Positions 35,554 to 59,461 of a DNA stretch of 64,000 bases are shown here, piece by piece. Where the stretch lies: positions 224,001 through 288,000 of the forward strand of contig CAVXJH010000003.1 of assembly GCA_963762115.1 (NCBI GenBank), read 5' to 3'. A model generated the notes under the pieces. That model was given only the letters and a program-made list of their open reading frames with translations. It searched no databases and was not told the DNA's origin. The stretch comes from Candidatus Babeliales bacterium. GTDB taxonomy: Bacteria > Babelota > Babeliae > Babelales > JANWKD01. The translations under genes and the position numbers were made by a program. Each line of letters begins with the position of its first letter. Position 1 is the first letter of the stretch.

Positions 35554-36491
35554 TTAATGCTTTTTTTTCAAATCAAAATAACCTTGCCTCTTCTCTTCAC
35601 TATATACGCAATAAAGGCCAGACAAAAGAATCATTATAGAAAATACAAAATAGATGGAAATTGATTCGCTAAGAAAAAACCACCCAAACAAAGCCGCAAA
35701 TGCCGGTGTCATCAATTCGCCAAAGGTGACCAAGGTGGCCGTGTATTTTTTCAAGAGGTAACCATACAATAAATAACAAATTATATTACCAAAAAGAATT
35801 ATTAAAGTGAGGTATAGAAGAAATGGTTGCAACTCAGTTATAGGAAACCATTGAGAAATCCATAGGGGATTAACGTGACTGTCGTTTCAAAAATATAGGA
35901 AGTAATAAGTGCTGCAATACCGCCAAAAAACATACCAACACCATTAATGAATATTATTGGCAAAGCATGTTTTTTAATACCTTTTCTAATAACAACCCAA
36001 CCATAAGCAAATGAAGTTATCGCAGCAAATATTGCTAATTCTGGTAATGAAACGAATAAAACATTGCGACCTTCTGATGATGATGATGAAAAAATAATTG
36101 GTAATGAACCAAGCAAACTCAGTCCAAGCCCAACAGCTTTTTTAATGGTCATTTTTTCATGAAAAATGTAATAAGAAAAAAGCGCTGCAATTGCAGGAGA
36201 AAGACTAAATAAAAATGCTGTTTTTGCTGAAGTCATATATTGCAAAGACCAAAATTCCATGGTATAGGCAAAATAAAAACAGAAAAAGGAAACTTGTGCA
36301 AAAAGCACGTAATCCTGCTTATACAATTTTGGAAACTGTTTGTTTTTTAAATAATAATAAACAAGAAAAATAAAACCAGCAATAATAAGGCGAATGCTAA
36401 TTAGAAAAATTGGCGGTGAATAATTGAGAAGAATTTTTCCTAATGTATAAGTGCTTGCAGAAAAAGCAGAAAGTAACATTAACGGTAGCAT
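35554..36491 (-). pseudogene. EamA/DMT transporter split by a frameshift near 35840-35890 (pseudogene or sequencing error)
   Basis: ORFs 35838-36491 and 35554-35832 together align along the intact paralog 50572-51465. Confidence 0.75.
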
Positions 36492-49914: not shown

Positions 49915-50460
49915 TTAATTTTTTTCATGCTGACGATCACCATAACGCTGAGTCACCGGCATAATAAGCGAATCAACAACGTGAATAACACCATTTTTTG
50001 CAGGAATATCACGACTAATTATTTTTGATTTAGTAATACTCGGCGTTACAAAAAGAGACCCTGATCCATCTTTTTGGATATACACAGGCATCGTTAAAGT
50101 AGGAAATGCTGAAATGCCGCCCAATTGATAAGAAGGAATCCTTCCCAGCATAATATGCATACCGACAAGCTTTCTAACACGATTGATATCTTGAGCAATA
50201 TTATTAAGAGTGTTGGGAGAAATTTTTCTAAAAGCATACCAAACCGGCACAAAAACGGTTACTGGTGACATATCGCGCAAAGTTTTTACCATATCAGCTT
50301 TTTCTAACAATGCATAAAATTCCGGAAAATCGCGCGCAAGAATAGTAACAATATTTTGATTTGATGCACTTTCTGGCATACGCATAATTGCAGCATCAAA
50401 TGCTATCATTGGAAACACCACAAAAAAAACTAGTATATAACGAGCTCTAAAATTTTTCAT
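49915..50460 (-). CDS. Fasciclin (FAS1) domain protein
   Basis: TVFVP..AF, H, DIPAKNGVIHVVDSLIMP. Confidence 0.9.
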   Translation of the reverse strand: MKNFRARYILVFFVVFPMIAFDAAIMRMPESASNQNIVTILARDFPEFYALLEKADMVKTLRDMSPVTVFVPVWYAFRKISPNTLNNIAQDINRVRKLVGMHIMLGRIPSYQLGGISAFPTLTMPVYIQKDGSGSLFVTPSITKSKIISRDIPAKNGVIHVVDSLIMPVTQRYGDRQHEKN

Positions 50461-50571
50461 TGCTTGCCACCCAAAGATTTTACGTAGTATTAAATAATAT
50501 TAATTTAATAATAGAATTTTTGGGTGGCAAAAAGCAATACAATAAAAAACATAAAGATTACTATAATCTTC

Positions 50572-51465
50572 CTAAAGAGTGTAACCCTGCTTCAGTTCTT
50601 CTTGGTAAAAAATATACAAACCAATGAAAACAACGAATAAAGAAAGGAAGAAAGTCCAACTGACCATTTCACCCAAAAACAACCAGCCAAAAAGTGCGGC
50701 AAAAAGAGGAGTGGTAAAGCCAGCAAATGAAAGAAAAGTTGCTGTATAACGCGTCAGCAAGTAACCATAAAAGTTATAGAACAATATATTGGCAACCAGA
50801 ATAATAAGAGCTGTTAAACGAACAAATGGCCAAAATTGCATGATAGGAGAAATTGCCCATCCCTCAACAAAATATGAAGTAATTAAAGCTAAAATACCGC
50901 CACCAACCATGCCAACACCATTAACCATAATGGGGGAATATTCACCATCTTTTACTAACTTACGAAGCATAATCCAACCATACACTGCCGAACCAACAGC
51001 AAAAAGCATCACGACTTCAGGCAAAGAAATTAATGAAGATGCTGTATGAACAGATAAATTTGAAACTATTTCAGGTAAAAAACCACAAAAACCAATACCA
51101 AGCCCTAACCATTTTCTAGAGGTCATCTTCTCTGAAAAATAAAAATAAGAAAAAATTGCTGCGAAAAATGGCGATAAATTATAAAGAAATGACGATTTAA
51201 ATGAAGTCAAATATTGCAGAGACCACAAATCTAACATATAAGCAAAATACACATGAAAAAGAATTATTTGAAAGAATAATAACCTATCTTTTTTATGCAC
51301 AAAAAAAGCACGCCTATCTTTCAAATAGGTATAACCAAGAAGCAATAACCCGGCCACGAACATACGAATGCCCACAAAAAACAATGGTTTTACGTACTCT
51401 AACAATGCCTTACAAATAGTAAAAGTACTCGCACACAAAGCATATAACACAATAATCGAAAACAT
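50572..51465 (-). CDS. EamA/DMT family transporter
   Basis: Ten TM-like segments, two EamA repeats; FGWLFLGE. Confidence 0.9.
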   Translation of the reverse strand: MFSIIVLYALCASTFTICKALLEYVKPLFFVGIRMFVAGLLLLGYTYLKDRRAFFVHKKDRLLFFQIILFHVYFAYMLDLWSLQYLTSFKSSFLYNLSPFFAAIFSYFYFSEKMTSRKWLGLGIGFCGFLPEIVSNLSVHTASSLISLPEVVMLFAVGSAVYGWIMLRKLVKDGEYSPIMVNGVGMVGGGILALITSYFVEGWAISPIMQFWPFVRLTALIILVANILFYNFYGYLLTRYTATFLSFAGFTTPLFAALFGWLFLGEMVSWTFFLSLFVVFIGLYIFYQEELKQGYTL

Positions 51466-51503
51466 AGTTACCCTTCTATAAAACTACTTACTTTCTCACT
51501 ATT

Positions 51504-51533
51504 AAAAAAACAGGCAACGCCAAGCATTGCCTG
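51504..51533 (-). terminator. Intrinsic terminator after cupin gene
   Basis: Minus strand caggcaatgc-ttg-gcgttgcctg plus U7. Confidence 0.7.
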
Positions 51534-51544
51534 CAACTAATTTC

Positions 51545-51886
51545 CTAATCACCCTTAGATTTTAAACGGGCAGGCTCAAACATAAGAACTAACGATCTTT
51601 CTTCTGCCTTAGGTTTGTGTTGAAGCCCCTTAGGTATAACAGCTCCTTGATTTTCTTTCAAATCAATTGATCCTTTTTCAGTATCAATGGTAATTTTACC
51701 CTTGGCAACTAGAAAAAACTCATCATCTTCATCATGACTATGCCAATGAAAATCGCCCTTAAATGCGGCAGCACGAACGACCCAATCATTAATCCGAGCA
51801 ACTTCAATAGGACTCCAATAGTTTTCACCTATTTTTTCATTAATACTATCAAGATCATAAAATTGTAAAAATTTTTTAATATCCAT
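51545..51886 (-). CDS. Cupin domain protein
   Basis: GDFHWHSHDEDDEFF, IPKGLQHKP. Confidence 0.9.
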   Translation of the reverse strand: MDIKKFLQFYDLDSINEKIGENYWSPIEVARINDWVVRAAAFKGDFHWHSHDEDDEFFLVAKGKITIDTEKGSIDLKENQGAVIPKGLQHKPKAEERSLVLMFEPARLKSKGD

Positions 51887-51909
51887 AAAATCCTTTCAAA
51901 AATAACAGT

Positions 51910-52680
51910 TTATAACGTAACAAATATTTCTTTTCCAGCGGAAACTTTCAAATAATCTCGCGCAGAACCCTGATTAACCGCAATCTCAAGCGTGTTATTA
52001 CTTCCTTTATAACAAAGCAATTGCCCCTGCTTAACCTTATCAAATGTTATTACAAAGGGTACTTCCAAAGATTTATCATCTATCTTCAAATGTATTAACC
52101 TATCAAACCATGTAGGATCAACTTGTATATTAGTTTTAATGTTGCCAAAACTATCTATGTAAGTAATAATTTTTTGCGTTTCTAAACTATCGCACAACGT
52201 AATATCTTTTTTATCAATCGGCAAAAGAGCATTCGTATTATTTTGTGCCAGTTGAATTGCAATCGGCGTAAAAATATCTCTACCATGAAAGGTATTCGAT
52301 TTTTCCGGGAAACATGCTTCATTAATTTTAAACACTTTTACACCCTCTTGTTTCAAAATATAATGAAACAAGCCATTATTTGGCCCAATAAACGTATATG
52401 ATCCAAGTTTTACTACCAAACCATTCCGTTCGGTGCCAACGCCCGGATCAACAACCGTAATAAAATAACTATTTTCAGGAAAATAGGCATAGACCTTTTC
52501 GAGCACAAATGCCCCACTGACAATACAAAATTTTTCTATGGAATGATCAATATCAATAACCGAACAATGAGGAATTTCACGCAATAAGGTAGCCTTTATG
52601 GAGGCAACCGCAAAATCAAGCCCAAAATCCGTTAATAAACCAAAAGTAATATTTGTATTTTTTGAAGATAACAAATTCAT
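51910..52680 (-). CDS. SAM hydroxide adenosyltransferase (DUF62, fluorinase/chlorinase family)
   Basis: LLTDFG, VVDPGVGTER, GPNNG, SNTFHGRDIF, IDSFGN, LEIAVNQGSA. Confidence 0.92.
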   Translation of the reverse strand: MNLLSSKNTNITFGLLTDFGLDFAVASIKATLLREIPHCSVIDIDHSIEKFCIVSGAFVLEKVYAYFPENSYFITVVDPGVGTERNGLVVKLGSYTFIGPNNGLFHYILKQEGVKVFKINEACFPEKSNTFHGRDIFTPIAIQLAQNNTNALLPIDKKDITLCDSLETQKIITYIDSFGNIKTNIQVDPTWFDRLIHLKIDDKSLEVPFVITFDKVKQGQLLCYKGSNNTLEIAVNQGSARDYLKVSAGKEIFVTL

Positions 52681-52784
52681 AGTCAATCTCTCTCATTAAA
52701 AAATGAAATCAAATTACAACAAAAGCACATCCCAAAAGGGATTCGCTTATAAAAAAATAATTGTGGAAAAGAAGATATATGGCC

Positions 52785-52883
52785 TTAGGCCATCATATAA
52801 AGAAGAGAAAATGACATAACCATGAATGCCAAGAACAAAATTTTGCTTGTCTGTGAAAAACAGGAAATAATGTTAAGATTCAT
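52785..52883 (-). CDS. Met-rich leader peptide (32 aa)
   Basis: RBS GAGGTG; MNLNIISCFSQTSKILFLAFMVMSFSLLYMMA*; promoter TTGACA-17-TAGAAT at 52951-52923. Confidence 0.72.
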   Translation of the reverse strand: MNLNIISCFSQTSKILFLAFMVMSFSLLYMMA

Positions 52884-53109
52884 AGTCACCTCAAAGGGTT
52901 GAATTGTTAAATACTCTATTAAATTCTAGAAAACAAATTCAAATTTGTCAATTTTTCAAAAGTCAAAGACATACAGAACAATTTTTTGTATCCTCAGGAT
53001 ATTATTGACGCTTAGAATATTTTATAATTAATAAACATATACTTTTTCTGTATTAATGATAAAACAAGTATCTATATACCTTTATATCGTTATAGAAAGA
53101 AAACATGCT

Positions 53110-54448
53110 ATGAATACGTTTAATAAACTATTAGCAATAGCTATACTAACCTGTACTCTTGGTACTATAACCTTAGGATTTAGTATTTTTAATACAAAAA
53201 ATACTAATACGATGCCAGTCAAAAACATTATTGTTATTGGAACTGGGGCAGCTGGCATAGGTTTTATACATGAAATACTAGAACAAAAAACTCTTGCTCA
53301 CATTACCTGGATAAGCTCTGATAATCATAATCCCTATGATCGAACTAAATTAGATTCAGTAGTTTCGCAAGAAATCTCAGAAAATGCCCCTACTCTCTTT
53401 GATAAAAAGAGTAACAACATTGATCTTCTCTTGGGTAAAAAAAGTAATATCTCTTGATGCTCAGAAAAAAATAGTAGCCTTAGATGATAAAAGCACTTAT
53501 TGCTATGATTATCTTTTTTTAGCAACAGGCTCAACGCCTAATGATCTTTTCCCGGAATCTCCCAAAGCTCAATCAATTAAAGGGATTTTTAATTTTCACA
53601 CCCTAGAAGATGCAAAAAATATTAATGCTTACATCAAGCAAAATACTATAACCGATGCGACAGTAATAGGTTGTGGCATTAATGGTCTTGAAGCAGCTGA
53701 TGCACTTTTTAGACGCGGTATAAAAGTTACTATTATTGATAGAAATGAACATATTTTACAAAATACTATTAATATCGAAGCTTCTCTAGCAATTGAAAAA
53801 AATATAAAAAATATATCTTCTATCACCTGGTATCCAAAATCTTCACTTAAAAATATCATACAAAAAAACGGCAATCTGGAAGGCATAGAACTTACTGATG
53901 GCAAAATAATTAAAACAGCGCTCATAATTAGTACTATTGGTGTAAAACCAAATATATATCTTGCAGAACAAAATGGCTTAACAATAAAAAATAATGCTTT
54001 AATAGTAGATAACACTATGAAAACAAGCGATCCATCAATTTATGCCGGCGGTGATATTATTTTGATATACGATAAAGGCACAAATACCCTCATTAAAAGC
54101 TGTAAGTGGGGAGATGCAGTAAAACAGGGTCATATCGCAGCAAGCAATATACTTGGTATAGAAAAAAAGTATCAAGGTTCCCTAATAGGCTATCGAACAT
54201 CATTCTTTGGTAATACTCTTGTTATGAGTGGGCTATTAAAAAATTACCCTACACAGTACAAAACAATTGAACAATCAGGTATAGATGATATGGGTAAACT
54301 TTTTTATCACAAAATAATCTTAGATAACAATATCATCAAAGGTTTTATTCTCTGTAATAACACGCAATCAGCAAGACGATTACGCAGAGCACTCGAAGAT
54401 CAAACACCATTTAATCATGAACGATTTTTAAGAAGATATAGCAAATAA
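53110..54448 (+). pseudogene. FAD/NAD(P)H-dependent oxidoreductase (rubredoxin reductase/NirB N-terminal-like), +1 frameshift in A7 run 53437-53443
   Basis: IGTGAAG in ORF1; LATGS, IGCGINGLE, IYAGGD in ORF2; removing one A restores LLLGKKVISLD. Confidence 0.8.
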
Positions 54449-54596: not shown

Positions 54597-54771
54597 ATGC
54601 CCATGAACAGCATACTTTTTTCATCCCCGAAACCTTTCCATACCACATACCCAATAGGGTATCTTTGGCTTTGCCAATAAATACCTTCCTCATAGGCTCT
54701 ATCTTACCTATTCTTTATTTTCCAATTTTCCTTATCTGACTTTTCCTTTTTGGTTAAACCATTGGGCGTAA
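54597..54771 (+). CDS. Trp-sensing leader: 27-aa ORF (54597-54680) plus overlapping +1 frame ending W-L-N-H-W-A* at 54771
   Basis: RBS GAGG; promoter TTGAAT-17-TAATAT; GGG TAT CTT TGG C at 54657-54669; +1 frame open 54658-54771 with no ATG/GTG/TTG start. Confidence 0.65.
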
Positions 54772-54859
54772 GCCCGAATATTTTTTGCGGCTAATAACCG
54801 GATTTAAAAACTTTTTTGTTAAAAAATAGTGGTATTTTCCAAAGTTAAGGAAATTTTTT

Positions 54860-55720
54860 ATGAAGAACATTACTTTATTATCTTGTATAGTTTTATTAAT
54901 CAGTTATTCATGTTTTATAAAGGGCATGGAATCAGACATCGAATATAGACAAGCAACCAATGATGATACTGTTGGCATTGTAGATCTGATTAATACTTAT
55001 GCATATAAAGATAATGATAAAATCGTTATCGTTCCAGAAGCATTTCGTGCAGCATACATACAAAGTGCAATCCAAACCAAAAGGCTTTTTGTTGCTTCTA
55101 ATGACAAAACAATTGTTGGCTACAAAAAATTATTTTGTATAACTGACGAACATGAATGCAATGATATTTTAAATAATGAACTACGCTGCACAGAAGATAC
55201 TTCTGCAGGATGTGCATTAATATCTGCGCATGATGAATCTACACAAGATTTTTTACCTGAACAACTAACAACAATCATGTCATTGCCAATAACCTACATT
55301 TATAACGGAGCAGATTTCACCCACCCTCAATATCGTGCACAAGGTATTAATAGCTCTTTAACCAAATATGCACTTGAAGCAACTTCAGATGCAGTGCGTA
55401 AAGATATTGAGAAAAAAAAGAGTACCTATCTTGCCATGGTATATGGATTGACCAAGTCAAATGCCGGTGCCAGCATCGTGGATGGCCGAACTCATGGTAT
55501 TTTTAAACAGTTTGTTTCATTTGCGCAGGCAATAACACATACATTAAAGTGTGCCGAACCATCCCAAGTAATTCTTAGTAGGCATCATGCATTTAAACCT
55601 TCATTTGATCCTAAAGCTACAGAATGCAAGCCTCTCTCAGATAGTCAATCTATTCCAGGATATGGATATCTTGTAGCTTGTGCTTTGGATCAAAACTCCA
55701 ATGAACGAGGTGATCTATGA
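54860..55720 (+). CDS. GNAT-like acetyltransferase-fold protein with signal peptide
   Basis: IEYRQAT..D...I..LI, FVA...IVGY, THPQYRAQGINSSL. Confidence 0.65.
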   Translation: MKNITLLSCIVLLISYSCFIKGMESDIEYRQATNDDTVGIVDLINTYAYKDNDKIVIVPEAFRAAYIQSAIQTKRLFVASNDKTIVGYKKLFCITDEHECNDILNNELRCTEDTSAGCALISAHDESTQDFLPEQLTTIMSLPITYIYNGADFTHPQYRAQGINSSLTKYALEATSDAVRKDIEKKKSTYLAMVYGLTKSNAGASIVDGRTHGIFKQFVSFAQAITHTLKCAEPSQVILSRHHAFKPSFDPKATECKPLSDSQSIPGYGYLVACALDQNSNERGDL

Positions 55721-56883
55721 TTACCTTGCTACAAAAATATTTAGAAATTAATACTGCACATCCACATCCTCAGTATCACGCTGCTATTGCATTGTTTAAA
55801 AAGCAAGCAGAAAATGATGGTTTTTTGGTTACTGAACTTATTCTTCCTTCCGGCAATCCCGTGCTTATTATTACCTTGCAAGGCAGTTGTCTTGAAATGC
55901 CTGCCCTTGCATTAAATCATCATATGGATGTTGTTCCAGCTGATAATAAAGATGAATGGCTATTTAATCCATTTGCAGGAACAGTTCATGAAGATTATAT
56001 CTATGGAAGAGGTACACAAGATTGTAAAGGTCTTGGTGTAGTTCAATATGCAGCATTAAAAATGCTTAAGCAAAGCGAATTACAATCGGCAAGGACGATT
56101 CATTATATTATGGTTCCTGATGAAGAGCGCGGTGGATTTCATGGCATGAAAGAATTTGTTGAACATCCATTATTCGCATCATTTAACATAGGATATGTTT
56201 TAGATGAAGGCCTGCCTTCAGGAGATGATAACGAATTGCTCATTAAGATTGATGAACGTACGCCAATACAAATATGCATAACAAGTAGAGGGCAACAAAG
56301 CCATGCATCAGGATTACTTAATAAAAATTGCATTCATGAATTGACTAATTTTCTGGCAAATATTGCGGCATTTCAATCCAAACAACAACAAGAAGTTGCA
56401 TTGAATCAAGCCGGGCATCATATTTCAATGCATATTACTTCATTAAGTACAAATAATACTGCATTGAATGTTATTCCTACGCAAGCGCAAGCTACGCTTG
56501 ATATGCGCATACCATCGCACTTGTCTTTGGATTACGGAATTTCTTTAATAGATGAATTAATACAAAAACATACGAGTACTACCTATGAAATTTTAGCAAC
56601 AAGTCAGGAACGTTTTAAAATAATTAAAGAAGATTCAATGTTTTACCAAACACTTGCCCAAGCTGTTACTGATCATGGCATTAGTCCAAAATCTTTTGCA
56701 TTTGAAGCGACAACTGATGCCAGATTTTATAGCCACAAAGGCATTCAAGCAATTGGGCTTACGCCATTCACGGTTACGCCAAACTTACATGGTACTAATG
56801 AAAGTATTTATATAAACGATTTGGTGCAAGGAACCGCAGTTTTATATACCTTTTTACGTGCATTTTGCACATTAAATAATTGA
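55717..56883 (+). CDS. M20 family aminoacylase (ACY1-like N-acyl-L-amino-acid amidohydrolase)
   Basis: LNHHMDVVP, IYGRGTQDCK, VPDEERGG, LDEG, TDARF, LHGTNE. Confidence 0.85.
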   Translation: MITLLQKYLEINTAHPHPQYHAAIALFKKQAENDGFLVTELILPSGNPVLIITLQGSCLEMPALALNHHMDVVPADNKDEWLFNPFAGTVHEDYIYGRGTQDCKGLGVVQYAALKMLKQSELQSARTIHYIMVPDEERGGFHGMKEFVEHPLFASFNIGYVLDEGLPSGDDNELLIKIDERTPIQICITSRGQQSHASGLLNKNCIHELTNFLANIAAFQSKQQQEVALNQAGHHISMHITSLSTNNTALNVIPTQAQATLDMRIPSHLSLDYGISLIDELIQKHTSTTYEILATSQERFKIIKEDSMFYQTLAQAVTDHGISPKSFAFEATTDARFYSHKGIQAIGLTPFTVTPNLHGTNESIYINDLVQGTAVLYTFLRAFCTLNN

Positions 56884-56895
56884 TAAGGAAAAAAA

Positions 56896-57891
56896 ATGAA
56901 AAAACTAATTATACTATTATTAGTGATTACAGGCGCAATCACTTTTTATTATGCCAAGCAGCACCTACTTGAAAAAGAAGAGCAAACAAATACTCAACAA
57001 TTGCATATTGCACTCTTTACCCCGATAGCACATCCAGCACTTGAAGAAATTGAACAAGGCTTTAAAGAAAAGTTACAACAACTAAACTTAAAGCAATGCG
57101 TTTTTACAACATTCAATGCTAATGGCAACAGAACATTATTGCGAGCACAAGCAGAAGAAATTGTGCAAGGTAATTATGATCTAATATTTTCCATGGGAGC
57201 GATGTGTTCACAAACGATTGCTGAGCTGCTGAAGAAAAAAAACCTCGAAACGCCGCATGTGTTTGCTGGTGTTGATGGTCCTGAGTTTGCTCTTTCATTA
57301 CAATCTTTGAATGAATCAACCACAGGCGTTTATGTAAAATCAGATTATGAACAAGAGCTCAGCATTCTTTTTAAACTTAAACCGGACACAAAAAACATTC
57401 TTCTTGCATACGATCCAACCCATGGTGTCGGTTTAGAAAAACAAAAGAACGAAATCGAAGAATATAGCAAAAAACATGGTGCAACATTACACAGCGTTGA
57501 AATTTATCAAACAAATGAAATTCAACAAAAGGTTGCAGCATCATTATCTAATATAGATGTTGTGCTTGTGCTTACTGATAACACAGTGGTTGCAGGCGTT
57601 GATGCTCTTATTGCATTATGCAATCGATTTGGCGTTACTTTGATGGCATCAGATTTGCCGTCAGGGAAAAAAGGCGCTGCATTATCCTACGGAATAAGTG
57701 AATACGAATCAGGTACTGGCGCTGCGCAAAAAGCACAGATGATACTACAACAAAATAAAAAACCACATGAAGTTCCCGTAACCGCCATAACTAATTTCCG
57801 ACTCCACATCAATAAAGACACCATGAAAATGCAGAATTTGACTCTTGATCATGAGACTTTAGAACAATTAGAAAAGGAGATCTCATGTTGA
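56896..57891 (+). CDS. ABC substrate-binding protein, Trp/Tyr-type (ABC_sub_bind)
   Basis: HPALEEIEQGF, NANGN, TDNTV. Confidence 0.85.
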   Translation: MKKLIILLLVITGAITFYYAKQHLLEKEEQTNTQQLHIALFTPIAHPALEEIEQGFKEKLQQLNLKQCVFTTFNANGNRTLLRAQAEEIVQGNYDLIFSMGAMCSQTIAELLKKKNLETPHVFAGVDGPEFALSLQSLNESTTGVYVKSDYEQELSILFKLKPDTKNILLAYDPTHGVGLEKQKNEIEEYSKKHGATLHSVEIYQTNEIQQKVAASLSNIDVVLVLTDNTVVAGVDALIALCNRFGVTLMASDLPSGKKGAALSYGISEYESGTGAAQKAQMILQQNKKPHEVPVTAITNFRLHINKDTMKMQNLTLDHETLEQLEKEISC

Positions 57892-58766
57892 ACACCTTGC
57901 TCGTTATTATCGAGCAAACCATGTTGCACTTACCGTTAATGTTTGGAGCTTATGTAAGTTTTTCATTATTAAAAGTCCCCGATTTAAGCATTGAAAGCGC
58001 TTATGTGGTTGGTGCAATTTTAGGTTCATCCGCTCTGATCAATATTGTAAATGTTCCTATGAGTATGATGATTTTCATCATACTCATGGCCAGCTTTCTT
58101 GGTGGAGCACTGGTAGGCATGACTTCAAGTTTGCTTACTCAAAAAGCTAAATTTCCCCATTTACTAAGCAGCATTGTTACCTTTGGTTTATTCCATGGTA
58201 TTAATCAGTTTATTTCAGCAACGTATGTTTCGTTAAGTAAAATAGATAATCCGCTTAGATTGCTTAACGGTATAACTCAATATCCTGAACTGCCCGTGCT
58301 CATTGTGATCGGTTGCCTTATTACAAGTCTTATGTATGCATTATTTAAAACACAACTTGGTTATGCATATGCAGTCTATGGCAACAATTCACAATTTTTT
58401 AAAAATTATGGCACCTCAACATCATTTGTATTTATTACCGGCATTATGATTGCCAATGGCTTGGCTGGCATAAGTGGTTATATGTTTGCACAATCAAACA
58501 ACTTTTTTGAACTTAATATGGGCCTTGGCAAGGCCCTTCTGTGCATCACAGCGCTTATCCTAGGAAAAGGCATACTGCACACAAAAAAACCGTTTTCAGT
58601 TGCTGTACCATTAGTTGGAACAGGTGCCTACTTTTCATTACAACAGTTACTGCTTAAAGTTGGGTTCAATTTAAAATATTTTACTGCCGTGCAAGCATTG
58701 TTGGTATTATGCATTTTGGTATATACCTTCCGAAAACAACCATGCAACGATAATTTGGGGGTATGA
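57885..58766 (+). CDS. ABC permease, Trp/Tyr-type
   Basis: PDLSIESAY, KTQLG, G.N, ANGLAGISG, MGLG. Confidence 0.85.
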   Translation: MLNTLLVIIEQTMLHLPLMFGAYVSFSLLKVPDLSIESAYVVGAILGSSALINIVNVPMSMMIFIILMASFLGGALVGMTSSLLTQKAKFPHLLSSIVTFGLFHGINQFISATYVSLSKIDNPLRLLNGITQYPELPVLIVIGCLITSLMYALFKTQLGYAYAVYGNNSQFFKNYGTSTSFVFITGIMIANGLAGISGYMFAQSNNFFELNMGLGKALLCITALILGKGILHTKKPFSVAVPLVGTGAYFSLQQLLLKVGFNLKYFTAVQALLVLCILVYTFRKQPCNDNLGV

Positions 58767-59461
58767 CTATGTTTATTAAACATCTTTCATTTAAATTTAA
58801 CAAAAAGAGTGCTCAATCCTTTTTTCAGAATATAACAATCGCATTTGCACCCAATAAGGTCCATTTTATTCAAGGTGATAATGGTGTGGGAAAATCAACA
58901 TTTTTCAATATACTACAAGGAGCCATCGGAAAAGATGCTTACTTAGAGGCATCTATACAGTTGGATGGCACCACATTTAACACACACAATACTATGTTGC
59001 CGCATGTATTTACACAACAGGTGCACGTAGTGCAGCAAAATTATGATAGTATGATTGCAAATCAATTTACCTTCATGGAAAATTTGCAATTGGCAAACTT
59101 ACCTATGTATCCACATTTAAAACCACTACCTCAAGCAACATTGTTTGATGTCATTAAAACATTAGGCATAGATCCACATAAACCTGCTTATCTTTTATCA
59201 GGCGGCCAACGCCAATTATTGGCAATACTCATGGCATTACAAAAAACAACAAAACTATTATTACTTGATGAACCAACGGCGACCCTTGATAAAAAAAATG
59301 CGGATCTCATTATGCAATGCCTATTTCAACTTGCAGAGCAACTCAAGGTAACTATGCTGATTATTTGCCACGATAAAGAACTGGTGAAACAATATGCACA
59401 GGAAAATAATTTTGTTATTCAACAGTTAGAAGATGGTACGCGAATGATACATAAAACCTAA
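58763..59461 (+). CDS. ABC ATP-binding protein
   Basis: GDNGVGKST, LSGGQRQ, LLDEPTATLD, H. Confidence 0.9.
   Translation: MTMFIKHLSFKFNKKSAQSFFQNITIAFAPNKVHFIQGDNGVGKSTFFNILQGAIGKDAYLEASIQLDGTTFNTHNTMLPHVFTQQVHVVQQNYDSMIANQFTFMENLQLANLPMYPHLKPLPQATLFDVIKTLGIDPHKPAYLLSGGQRQLLAILMALQKTTKLLLLDEPTATLDKKNADLIMQCLFQLAEQLKVTMLIICHDKELVKQYAQENNFVIQQLEDGTRMIHKT

Follow-up and report, generated by a model that had tools for sequence, protein, structure and literature searches.

On the minus strand of a 64,000-nucleotide (nt) stretch of DNA from a Candidatus Babeliales bacterium (contig CAVXJH010000003.1 of assembly GCA_963762115.1, positions 224,001–288,000; 'the window' below means the whole of this stretch), a DUF62 gene of the S-adenosylmethionine (SAM) hydroxide adenosyltransferase family is preceded by a short open reading frame (ORF) that ends Met-Met-Ala-stop. 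This short upstream gene is a conserved leader and a real regulatory element. It very probably senses Met codons, and we are fairly confident that the operon behind it is induced by methionine starvation. The reading as a whole—a methionine-sensing leader that turns on the DUF62 operon for methionine derived from SAM—we consider likely, with rather less assurance.

A conserved leader with Met codons at its stop

The source genome (1.53 Mb, 34% G+C, 95% complete; G000 in the designations used here) was compared with others of its phylum, for which G numbers stand, L numbers being used for loci. The phylum set comprises 261 genomes, the relatives being titled Babeliales or Dependentiae, and 16 of them, in four families, encode DUF62 (PF01887). 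These 16 are kin, and the leader counts that follow are not independent trials. Fifteen have the leader upstream of their DUF62 operon, in 17 copies of 18–45 codons; in the only one without it, G214, the DUF62 gene itself (L035) is broken off at a contig end. One genome (G042) has two leaders in tandem, another (G090) has one ahead of its cupin gene and a second ahead of DUF62, and a third (G069) has a single leader ahead of cupin-DUF62. The first-pass annotation of the window had made its case depend on Met codons being conserved upstream of DUF62 orthologues, and they are kept, in frame, across all four families.

Apart from the number and position of these Met codons, the leader peptides are unalike in both sequence and length. 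Met occupies 58 of the 221 codons that make up the last 13 of the 17 leaders, and three of the 302 codons before them. Over the final 39 nt, ATG triplets divide among the three frames as 58:0:1, and as 30:0:1 without counting the hairpin arm. Sixteen leaders end in Met-Ala-stop or Met-Gly-stop; the other, that of G209, retains the hairpin and continues for four more codons. Core pairs 2–5 of the hairpin over the stop codon are present in all 17, and pair 5, which is C-G in 14 and G-C in three, switches together with the change from Ala to Gly. When the alignment of this hairpin is fitted to the model, 94% of its cells pair, versus 14–41% when it is slid. The 40 nt past the hairpin are rich in pyrimidines (C 118, G 38 and U 370 of 680, all leaders combined), and the spacer from leader to next start measures 83–184 nt, and in one case 309 nt. 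A Shine-Dalgarno-like word stands ahead of 13 of the leaders, and promoter sites that match at 9 or more of 12 positions lie within 130 nt upstream of 11.

In the window, where all features of the operon are on the minus strand, the leader has a sigma-70-type promoter, TTGACA-17-TAGAAT (52923–52951; an 11/12 match, the best of 23 sites in the region), and a ribosome-binding site, GAGGTG (52887–52892), read from the sequence. The ORF itself, 32 codons long (52785–52883), is called from its sequence and its conservation, and has Met at codons 21 (52823–52821), 23 (52817–52815), and 30 and 31 (52796–52791). Its last two codons give rise to a hairpin that holds the stop codon in its loop (52779–52793) and can be extended to about 10 pairs. 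An unpaired, pyrimidine-rich tail follows (52748–52778), a candidate Rho loading site or terminator tail, and farther on is the purine-rich ribosome-binding site of DUF62 (52688–52694). The promoter, the ribosome-binding site, the ORF with its four C-terminal Met codons, and the stop-in-loop hairpin had all been called in the first-pass annotation, and each was borne out. A second, terminator-like hairpin with a U-rich tail had been called as well; it is present here (52716–52746, core 52742–52729), but its sequence is not conserved in the relatives.

Judged by the source genome alone, the Met count says little and could be chance: at least four Met in the last 13 codons are found in three of its 1836 short upstream ORFs. 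A G+C-rich hairpin over the stop occurs in 12 of the 1836, with one of the three Met-rich ones, the DUF62 leader, among them. It is conservation that settles the leader as real. Might the ORF encode a functional small hydrophobic peptide, instead, such as a type I toxin? The C-terminal half of the source-genome peptide is hydrophobic, and its mRNA folds strongly, the 251-nt leader region beating all 200 shuffles (z −3.27). Toxin and chance can both be largely excluded, nonetheless, by the variable length of the leader, by a peptide of which only Met count and position are kept, by its constant place ahead of the same operon, and by its single copy, no further copies of the leader DNA being found in the source genome.

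An exact 17–18 nt leader pattern, which misses variants, was found in six of the 261 genomes, each time at DUF62. In broader scans, among the DUF62 matches listed (mostly from other phyla), 150 loci had upstream DNA of sufficient length, and the Met-hairpin motif occurs at two of them (L039 and L041), both from close relatives; in three metK loci it was not found ahead of the gene. The usual controls of methionine genes are riboswitches, T-boxes and repressors. Scanned against Rfam, the leader region of the window gave no family at gathering score, and no match to a SAM riboswitch or T-box.

Sister leaders for threonine, isoleucine and tryptophan

Leaders of like build occur with the codons of other amino acids at their ends. 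A covariance model (R3), made from an alignment of 17 rows, two of them false, and run on 151 genomes, matched nine known leaders, a threonine leader in G033, and seven sites that we read as ordinary terminators or chance. The G033 leader (L213, G033:C24:179519-179583, minus strand) is Thr-rich and stands ahead of thrS (TIGR00418, over cut-off). The source genome has another, 46 codons long with eight Thr in its last 13 codons and with a hairpin and tail that resemble those of the Met leader (L219, G000:C6:488823, minus strand); it precedes an SstT-like carrier gene (best match, below cut-off). A 49-codon leader with an Ile/Val-rich end (L220, G000:C3:24019, minus strand), conserved in G001, is found ahead of a livcs/BrnQ carrier gene (over cut-off). 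A Trp leader lies in the window itself (54598–54790, plus strand), where two Trp codons and an Ala codon run up to a stop (54769–54771) inside a hairpin. Downstream of it are an unknown gene, an M20 aminoacylase gene and a TrpX-like ABC importer (54860–59461; TrpX below cut-off). The likely start of this leader, at 54598, is in another frame, one base out of step; its counterpart in G253 (L221) is unbroken, Trp filling three of the last five codons and the hairpin running into U8.

Cells that are short of an amino acid raise the expression of its tRNA synthetase and importer genes. Because like-built leaders with cognate codons precede thrS and amino-acid importers, the Met leader, too, is probably induced by starvation. 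This had been the central proposal of the first-pass annotation, and the in-frame Met codons in four families and the Thr, Ile and Trp sister leaders now support it, the regulation itself being argued by analogy.

The opposite polarity has a well-known precedent. In Escherichia coli tnaC, a ribosome near the leader stop masks a pyrimidine-rich site and blocks Rho; tnaC uses a conserved peptide to sense free tryptophan, and is switched on when there is too much of it. The Babelota leaders are similar in having a pyrimidine site that would be masked by a ribosome near the stop. If they acted like tnaC, plentiful methionine, or SAM sensed by the nascent peptide, would let the ribosome melt the hairpin, and the operon would dispose of excess SAM. 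The overlap of hairpin and stop codon suits such a scheme, since a closely coupled ribosome would melt the hairpin in normal translation, and so does the nearly invariant Met-Ala/Gly-stop ending. Unlike in tnaC, however, the rest of the peptide is unconserved, and it is codons that appear to be counted; the same build, its Met codons exchanged for those of the amino acid concerned, is found ahead of thrS and of three importer genes. We consider this polarity, or any such other signal, improbable.

Some observations fit the starvation-sensing scheme poorly or speak against its generality. Thr leaders precede only one of six SstT-like genes, and clear hairpin-over-stop leaders only about four of 25 BrnQ genes, one of which has only 80 nt upstream. 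Some of the non-Met leaders hold Met and Cys codons mid-peptide, the Ile leader L220 among them. And no Met-type leader was found ahead of metG in any of four genomes (4/4). The matched Thr, Ile and Trp leaders of a single genome form a natural series from which to learn how a stop codon inside a hairpin controls expression, and leaders of this kind could help to identify the substrates of carriers that have no annotation in these parasites.

A proposed route from a stalled ribosome to expression

The leader peptide would sense charged methionine tRNA through ribosome stalling. When methionine is plentiful, the ribosome would finish and leave, the hairpin would fold with its tail bare, and transcription would end within the spacer of ~100 nt. 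When methionine is scarce, the ribosome would wait on the last AUG codons, where it would cover one hairpin arm and the first part of the tail; transcription would then run on into the operon, instead. The stop would most likely be Rho-assisted, because rho is present in the source genome, C outnumbers G in the tail, and a gap usually separates the U run from the stem. An unpaired tract of this kind after the leader stop, in a cell that encodes Rho, is compatible with Rho-dependent attenuation, and is not proof of it.

Constrained folding of the leaders (in which the G256 row was taken 3 nt out of register) revealed no antiterminator and no second terminator shared among them, and for this reason we do not file them as classical, trp-type attenuators. 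An intrinsic terminator of canonical form fits only some of the copies, the U run beginning anywhere from 0 to 12 nt past the hairpin core and being absent from G220. For both reasons, premature termination after ribosome release is favored, and we lean, by a little, toward this as the main output. Besides the failed antiterminator test, two observations sit awkwardly with it: a ribosome stalled at the upstream Met codons (−10 and −12) would leave the hairpin uncovered, and the G220 leader has no U-rich tail at all.

Those upstream Met codons would be explained if the same sensor had a translational output, the leader pairing with the ribosome-binding site and start codon of DUF62 until a stalled ribosome frees them, and termination being secondary polarity. 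In seven of the 17 leaders the cognate duplex with the start site is predicted at −13.9 to −19.1 kcal/mol, and in four (G000, G090b, G087 and G256) the cognate partner ranks first of 17. In the source genome the segment concerned (52803–52829) is predicted to pair at −18.5 kcal/mol, and blocking the leader in constrained folding raises the unpaired fraction of the DUF62 start region from 0.09 to ~0.3. Cognate preference is missing from the other 10 leaders, however, and a permutation (swap) over all 17 gives p = 0.13; mean exposure of the start region merely rises from 0.36 to 0.43 when the leader is blocked, and the parts that are conserved are the hairpin and tail, not the start-site pairing. 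The post-hairpin tail, for its part, shows no cognate preference in pairing with the start site (p 0.88). As the principal output, translational control thus seems rather doubtful. A translational layer in a subset of leaders is plausible from these models, and in the source genome a stalled ribosome would free the DUF62 start site in addition to permitting read-through.

How do these leaders compare with known ones? Classical attenuators (trpL, hisL, thrL and pheM-pheST, and the Corynebacterium ilvB upstream ORF, PMC10272879) likewise have a short ORF with its own start site and cognate codons, ahead of supply genes or a tRNA synthetase gene. They differ in that here Met codons lie directly against the stop and are themselves part of the hairpin, no shared antiterminator/terminator pair was found, and the genes controlled would serve scavenging rather than biosynthesis. 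Nearest in layout are the polycysteine ORFs of mycobacteria (bioRxiv 10.1101/834739) and the cys and ilvB leaders of actinobacteria (PMC1262725), with control codons at the 3' end beside the stop, and several loci per genome. The latter survey proposes a pyrimidine tract as a Rho site (cys) and describes codons that overlap a hairpin (ilvB); the passages cited report nothing for methionine operons. One polycysteine ORF, Ms5788A, pairs with the downstream start site, as only seven of the 17 Met leaders are predicted to do; it is leaderless, and has been shown to act on translation. All of these respond to Cys or branched-chain codons, whereas ours has Met. Among open-licence papers in PMC and bioRxiv, we found none on a Met-codon attenuator, on an attenuator in Babeliae, or on DUF62 together with a methionine riboswitch.

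Host SAM as a probable source of methionine

The first gene behind the leader (51910–52680, 256 aa) matches both the N- and C-terminal SAM_HAT domains over cut-off (PF01887 and PF20257), so that the DUF62 assignment of the first-pass annotation holds, as do those of the cupin (PF07883) and EamA (PF00892) genes that follow. The catalytic triad (D78, R85 and H132), aligned with that of PH0463 (E 8e-36), is invariant in 11 of 11 sequences; an Asp-Arg-His triad marks hydrolases, and is absent from halogenases (PMC10491745). The characterized (R)-SAM hydrolases PH0463, StDUF62, SaciSAMH and HvSAMH have both Pfam domains and the triad in common with the Babelota enzyme. The latter differs in falling below the cut-offs of both NCBIfam (R)-SAM hydrolase models that match it best (146 versus 470 and 135 versus 350 bits), and in having a Met leader, an adjoining carrier gene and no metK. 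It differs, too, near the TDFG motif. The spacing past this motif is one residue shorter in all 18 loci of the Babelota clade (some of which repeat a genome); among the matches listed, 134 of 150 other DUF62 loci have the longer spacing, and 13 others the shorter. The clade also has Ala at a position where most members have Tyr. In fluorinase structures the loop after TDFG contacts the methionine part of SAM, and its alteration in this clade might, purely as a hypothesis from sequence, change stereoselectivity. A monomer model (pLDDT 81.8) is uninformative on this point.

Stereoselectivity matters, because the enzyme would cut imported host SAM into methionine and adenosine, and would need a useful activity on (S,S)-SAM in order to do so. 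The three DUF62 enzymes tested in the papers cited here prefer (R,S)-SAM (PMC12120602; bioRxiv 2025.08.29.672840), a preference that weighs against our reading and that the first-pass annotation overlooked when it cast DUF62 as a methionine supplier. The regulation could be real, then, and the enzyme an ordinary (R,S)-SAM hydrolase, one that takes its methionine solely from the damaged epimer in the imported SAM and leaves the active cofactor alone. For a cell that lacks metK, and so has no means of making SAM again, cleavage of the active form would be costly, and the best NCBIfam matches point the same way, below cut-off as they are. In wild-type cells, however, only ~3–8% of the pool is the (R,S) epimer (bioRxiv 2025.08.29.672840), which would be a poor source of methionine, and the shorter loop and the Ala-for-Tyr change set this clade apart. 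Slow, incomplete cleavage of (S,S)-SAM by DUF62 has been seen, moreover, and another, unknown physiological role has been suggested for some members (PMC12120602). We judge the epimer-only alternative unlikely, and a supply of methionine from SAM reasonably likely. The physiological role of DUF62 is disputed: control of (R,S)-epimer damage is the current view, and for some members it is questioned in PMC12120602. Through its conserved Met-codon sensor one DUF62 clade is tied to methionine supply, which, if we are right, gives a puzzling family a nutritional job.

DUF62 itself varies among the relatives. In G042 (L021) the protein has an N-terminal hydrophobic extension, with similar ones in G090, G246 and G069, which may mean that the enzyme is membrane-anchored or exported. 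A VUT-family carrier gene and a tgt-like gene follow DUF62 after 251 nt at the same G042 locus, and in G069 (L037) DUF62 is split by a frameshift.

The metabolic setting agrees with a need for outside SAM. Babeliales and Dependentiae live as parasites of protists, depend on their hosts and have little capacity to make amino acids (PMC6561590). In the source genome, at its 95% completeness, metK was not found, and neither were SAH nucleosidase and SAH hydrolase; searches for the MetE, MetQ, PNP/Pfs and SahH families, in five genomes each, found no member. Across the phylum set, metK is present in 20 genomes and in none of the 16 DUF62 carriers. An overlap of only ~1.2 was expected, and its absence is not significant; it shows a dependence on outside SAM, not exclusion.

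The SAM would likely be brought in from the host by the third gene of the operon, a two-domain EamA/DMT carrier of 297 aa (50572–51465). The carrier shares 60% identity with a Dependentiae protein whose automatic name is SAM/SAH transporter, 49–51% with chlamydial proteins, and, over 300 residues, 49% with a 304-aa DMT protein of Waddlia chondrophila. A Waddlia homolog of the tested chlamydial carrier CTL843 is listed at a 915-nt locus (PMC3104491), and because such a locus fits 304 aa, the two are probably the same, which would place the Waddlia protein in the CTL843 SAM/SAH-carrier family. CTL843 can work both by symport and by exchange (PMC3104491), and net uptake of SAM is therefore possible. 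The Babelota carrier is like CTL843 in its two EamA domains and in serving a host-dependent cell without metK, Pfs or SahH. It is unlike it in that the resemblance runs through the Waddlia protein rather than CTL843 itself, in being one of four EamA loci in its genome, and in being linked to a SAM-cleaving enzyme. SAM import, as first proposed for this gene, is supported by the likeness to the chlamydial family as a likely function. A search for solved structures matched none to the carrier.

The genomic evidence for the carrier is mixed. EamA lies downstream of DUF62 at 10 of 16 loci, and directly abuts it (gap −10 to 15 nt) in six genomes (G253, G256, G087, G159, G002 and G149). The other six loci show no adjacent EamA gene, the source genome has three further EamA loci, one of them split, and in its operon an intrinsic-terminator-like hairpin of 11 pairs (51504–51534, stem 51534–51510) with a U tail stands 10 nt past the cupin stop, so that EamA may receive only read-through; all of this counts against the proposed role. 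The hairpin had been raised beforehand as a caveat, and it is real in the source genome, yet DUF62 and EamA abut in the six relatives. EamA might lie outside the methionine response here, or carry methionine or another sulfur compound rather than SAM. A hairpin and a 162-nt gap in G004, in addition to the terminator in the source genome, and the replacement of EamA by an NhaC-family carrier in G220 would agree with this, as would the difficulty of inferring the substrates of DMT carriers. Against it stand the abutting genes, and the sequence identity with chlamydial members of what is probably the SAM/SAH-carrier family, and we think it distinctly unlikely. The G220 locus (L029), with its Met leader and DUF62, offers in that NhaC-family protein a candidate methionine importer, by analogy with NhaC-type MetT.

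The gene between DUF62 and EamA encodes a 113-aa cupin (51545–51886). It appears accessory, and is dispensable: it is intact at five of 16 loci, internally deleted in G001 (L030), and absent from most.

If these pieces belong together, then Babelota would possess one modular attenuator—cognate codons, a stop inside a hairpin, a pyrimidine tail—adapted to at least four amino acids, and a Met version of it that feeds on the methyl donor of the host by way of a chlamydial-type SAM carrier and a DUF62 clade with a remodeled substrate loop that cleaves natural (S,S)-SAM and so supplies methionine. We offer this broader synthesis tentatively, as possible rather than probable.

Elsewhere in the window, the split EamA paralog (G000:C3:259602-260482, minus strand; window ~35600–36480) consists of two ORFs, of 217 and ~102 aa. 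A pyridine nucleotide-disulphide oxidoreductase gene (53056–54448, plus strand) comprises two overlapping ORFs (133 and 354 aa) and is apparently frameshifted. A long inverted repeat flanking an AT-rich spacer (50459–50536) is situated just upstream of a gene for a fasciclin-domain protein (49915–50460, minus strand).

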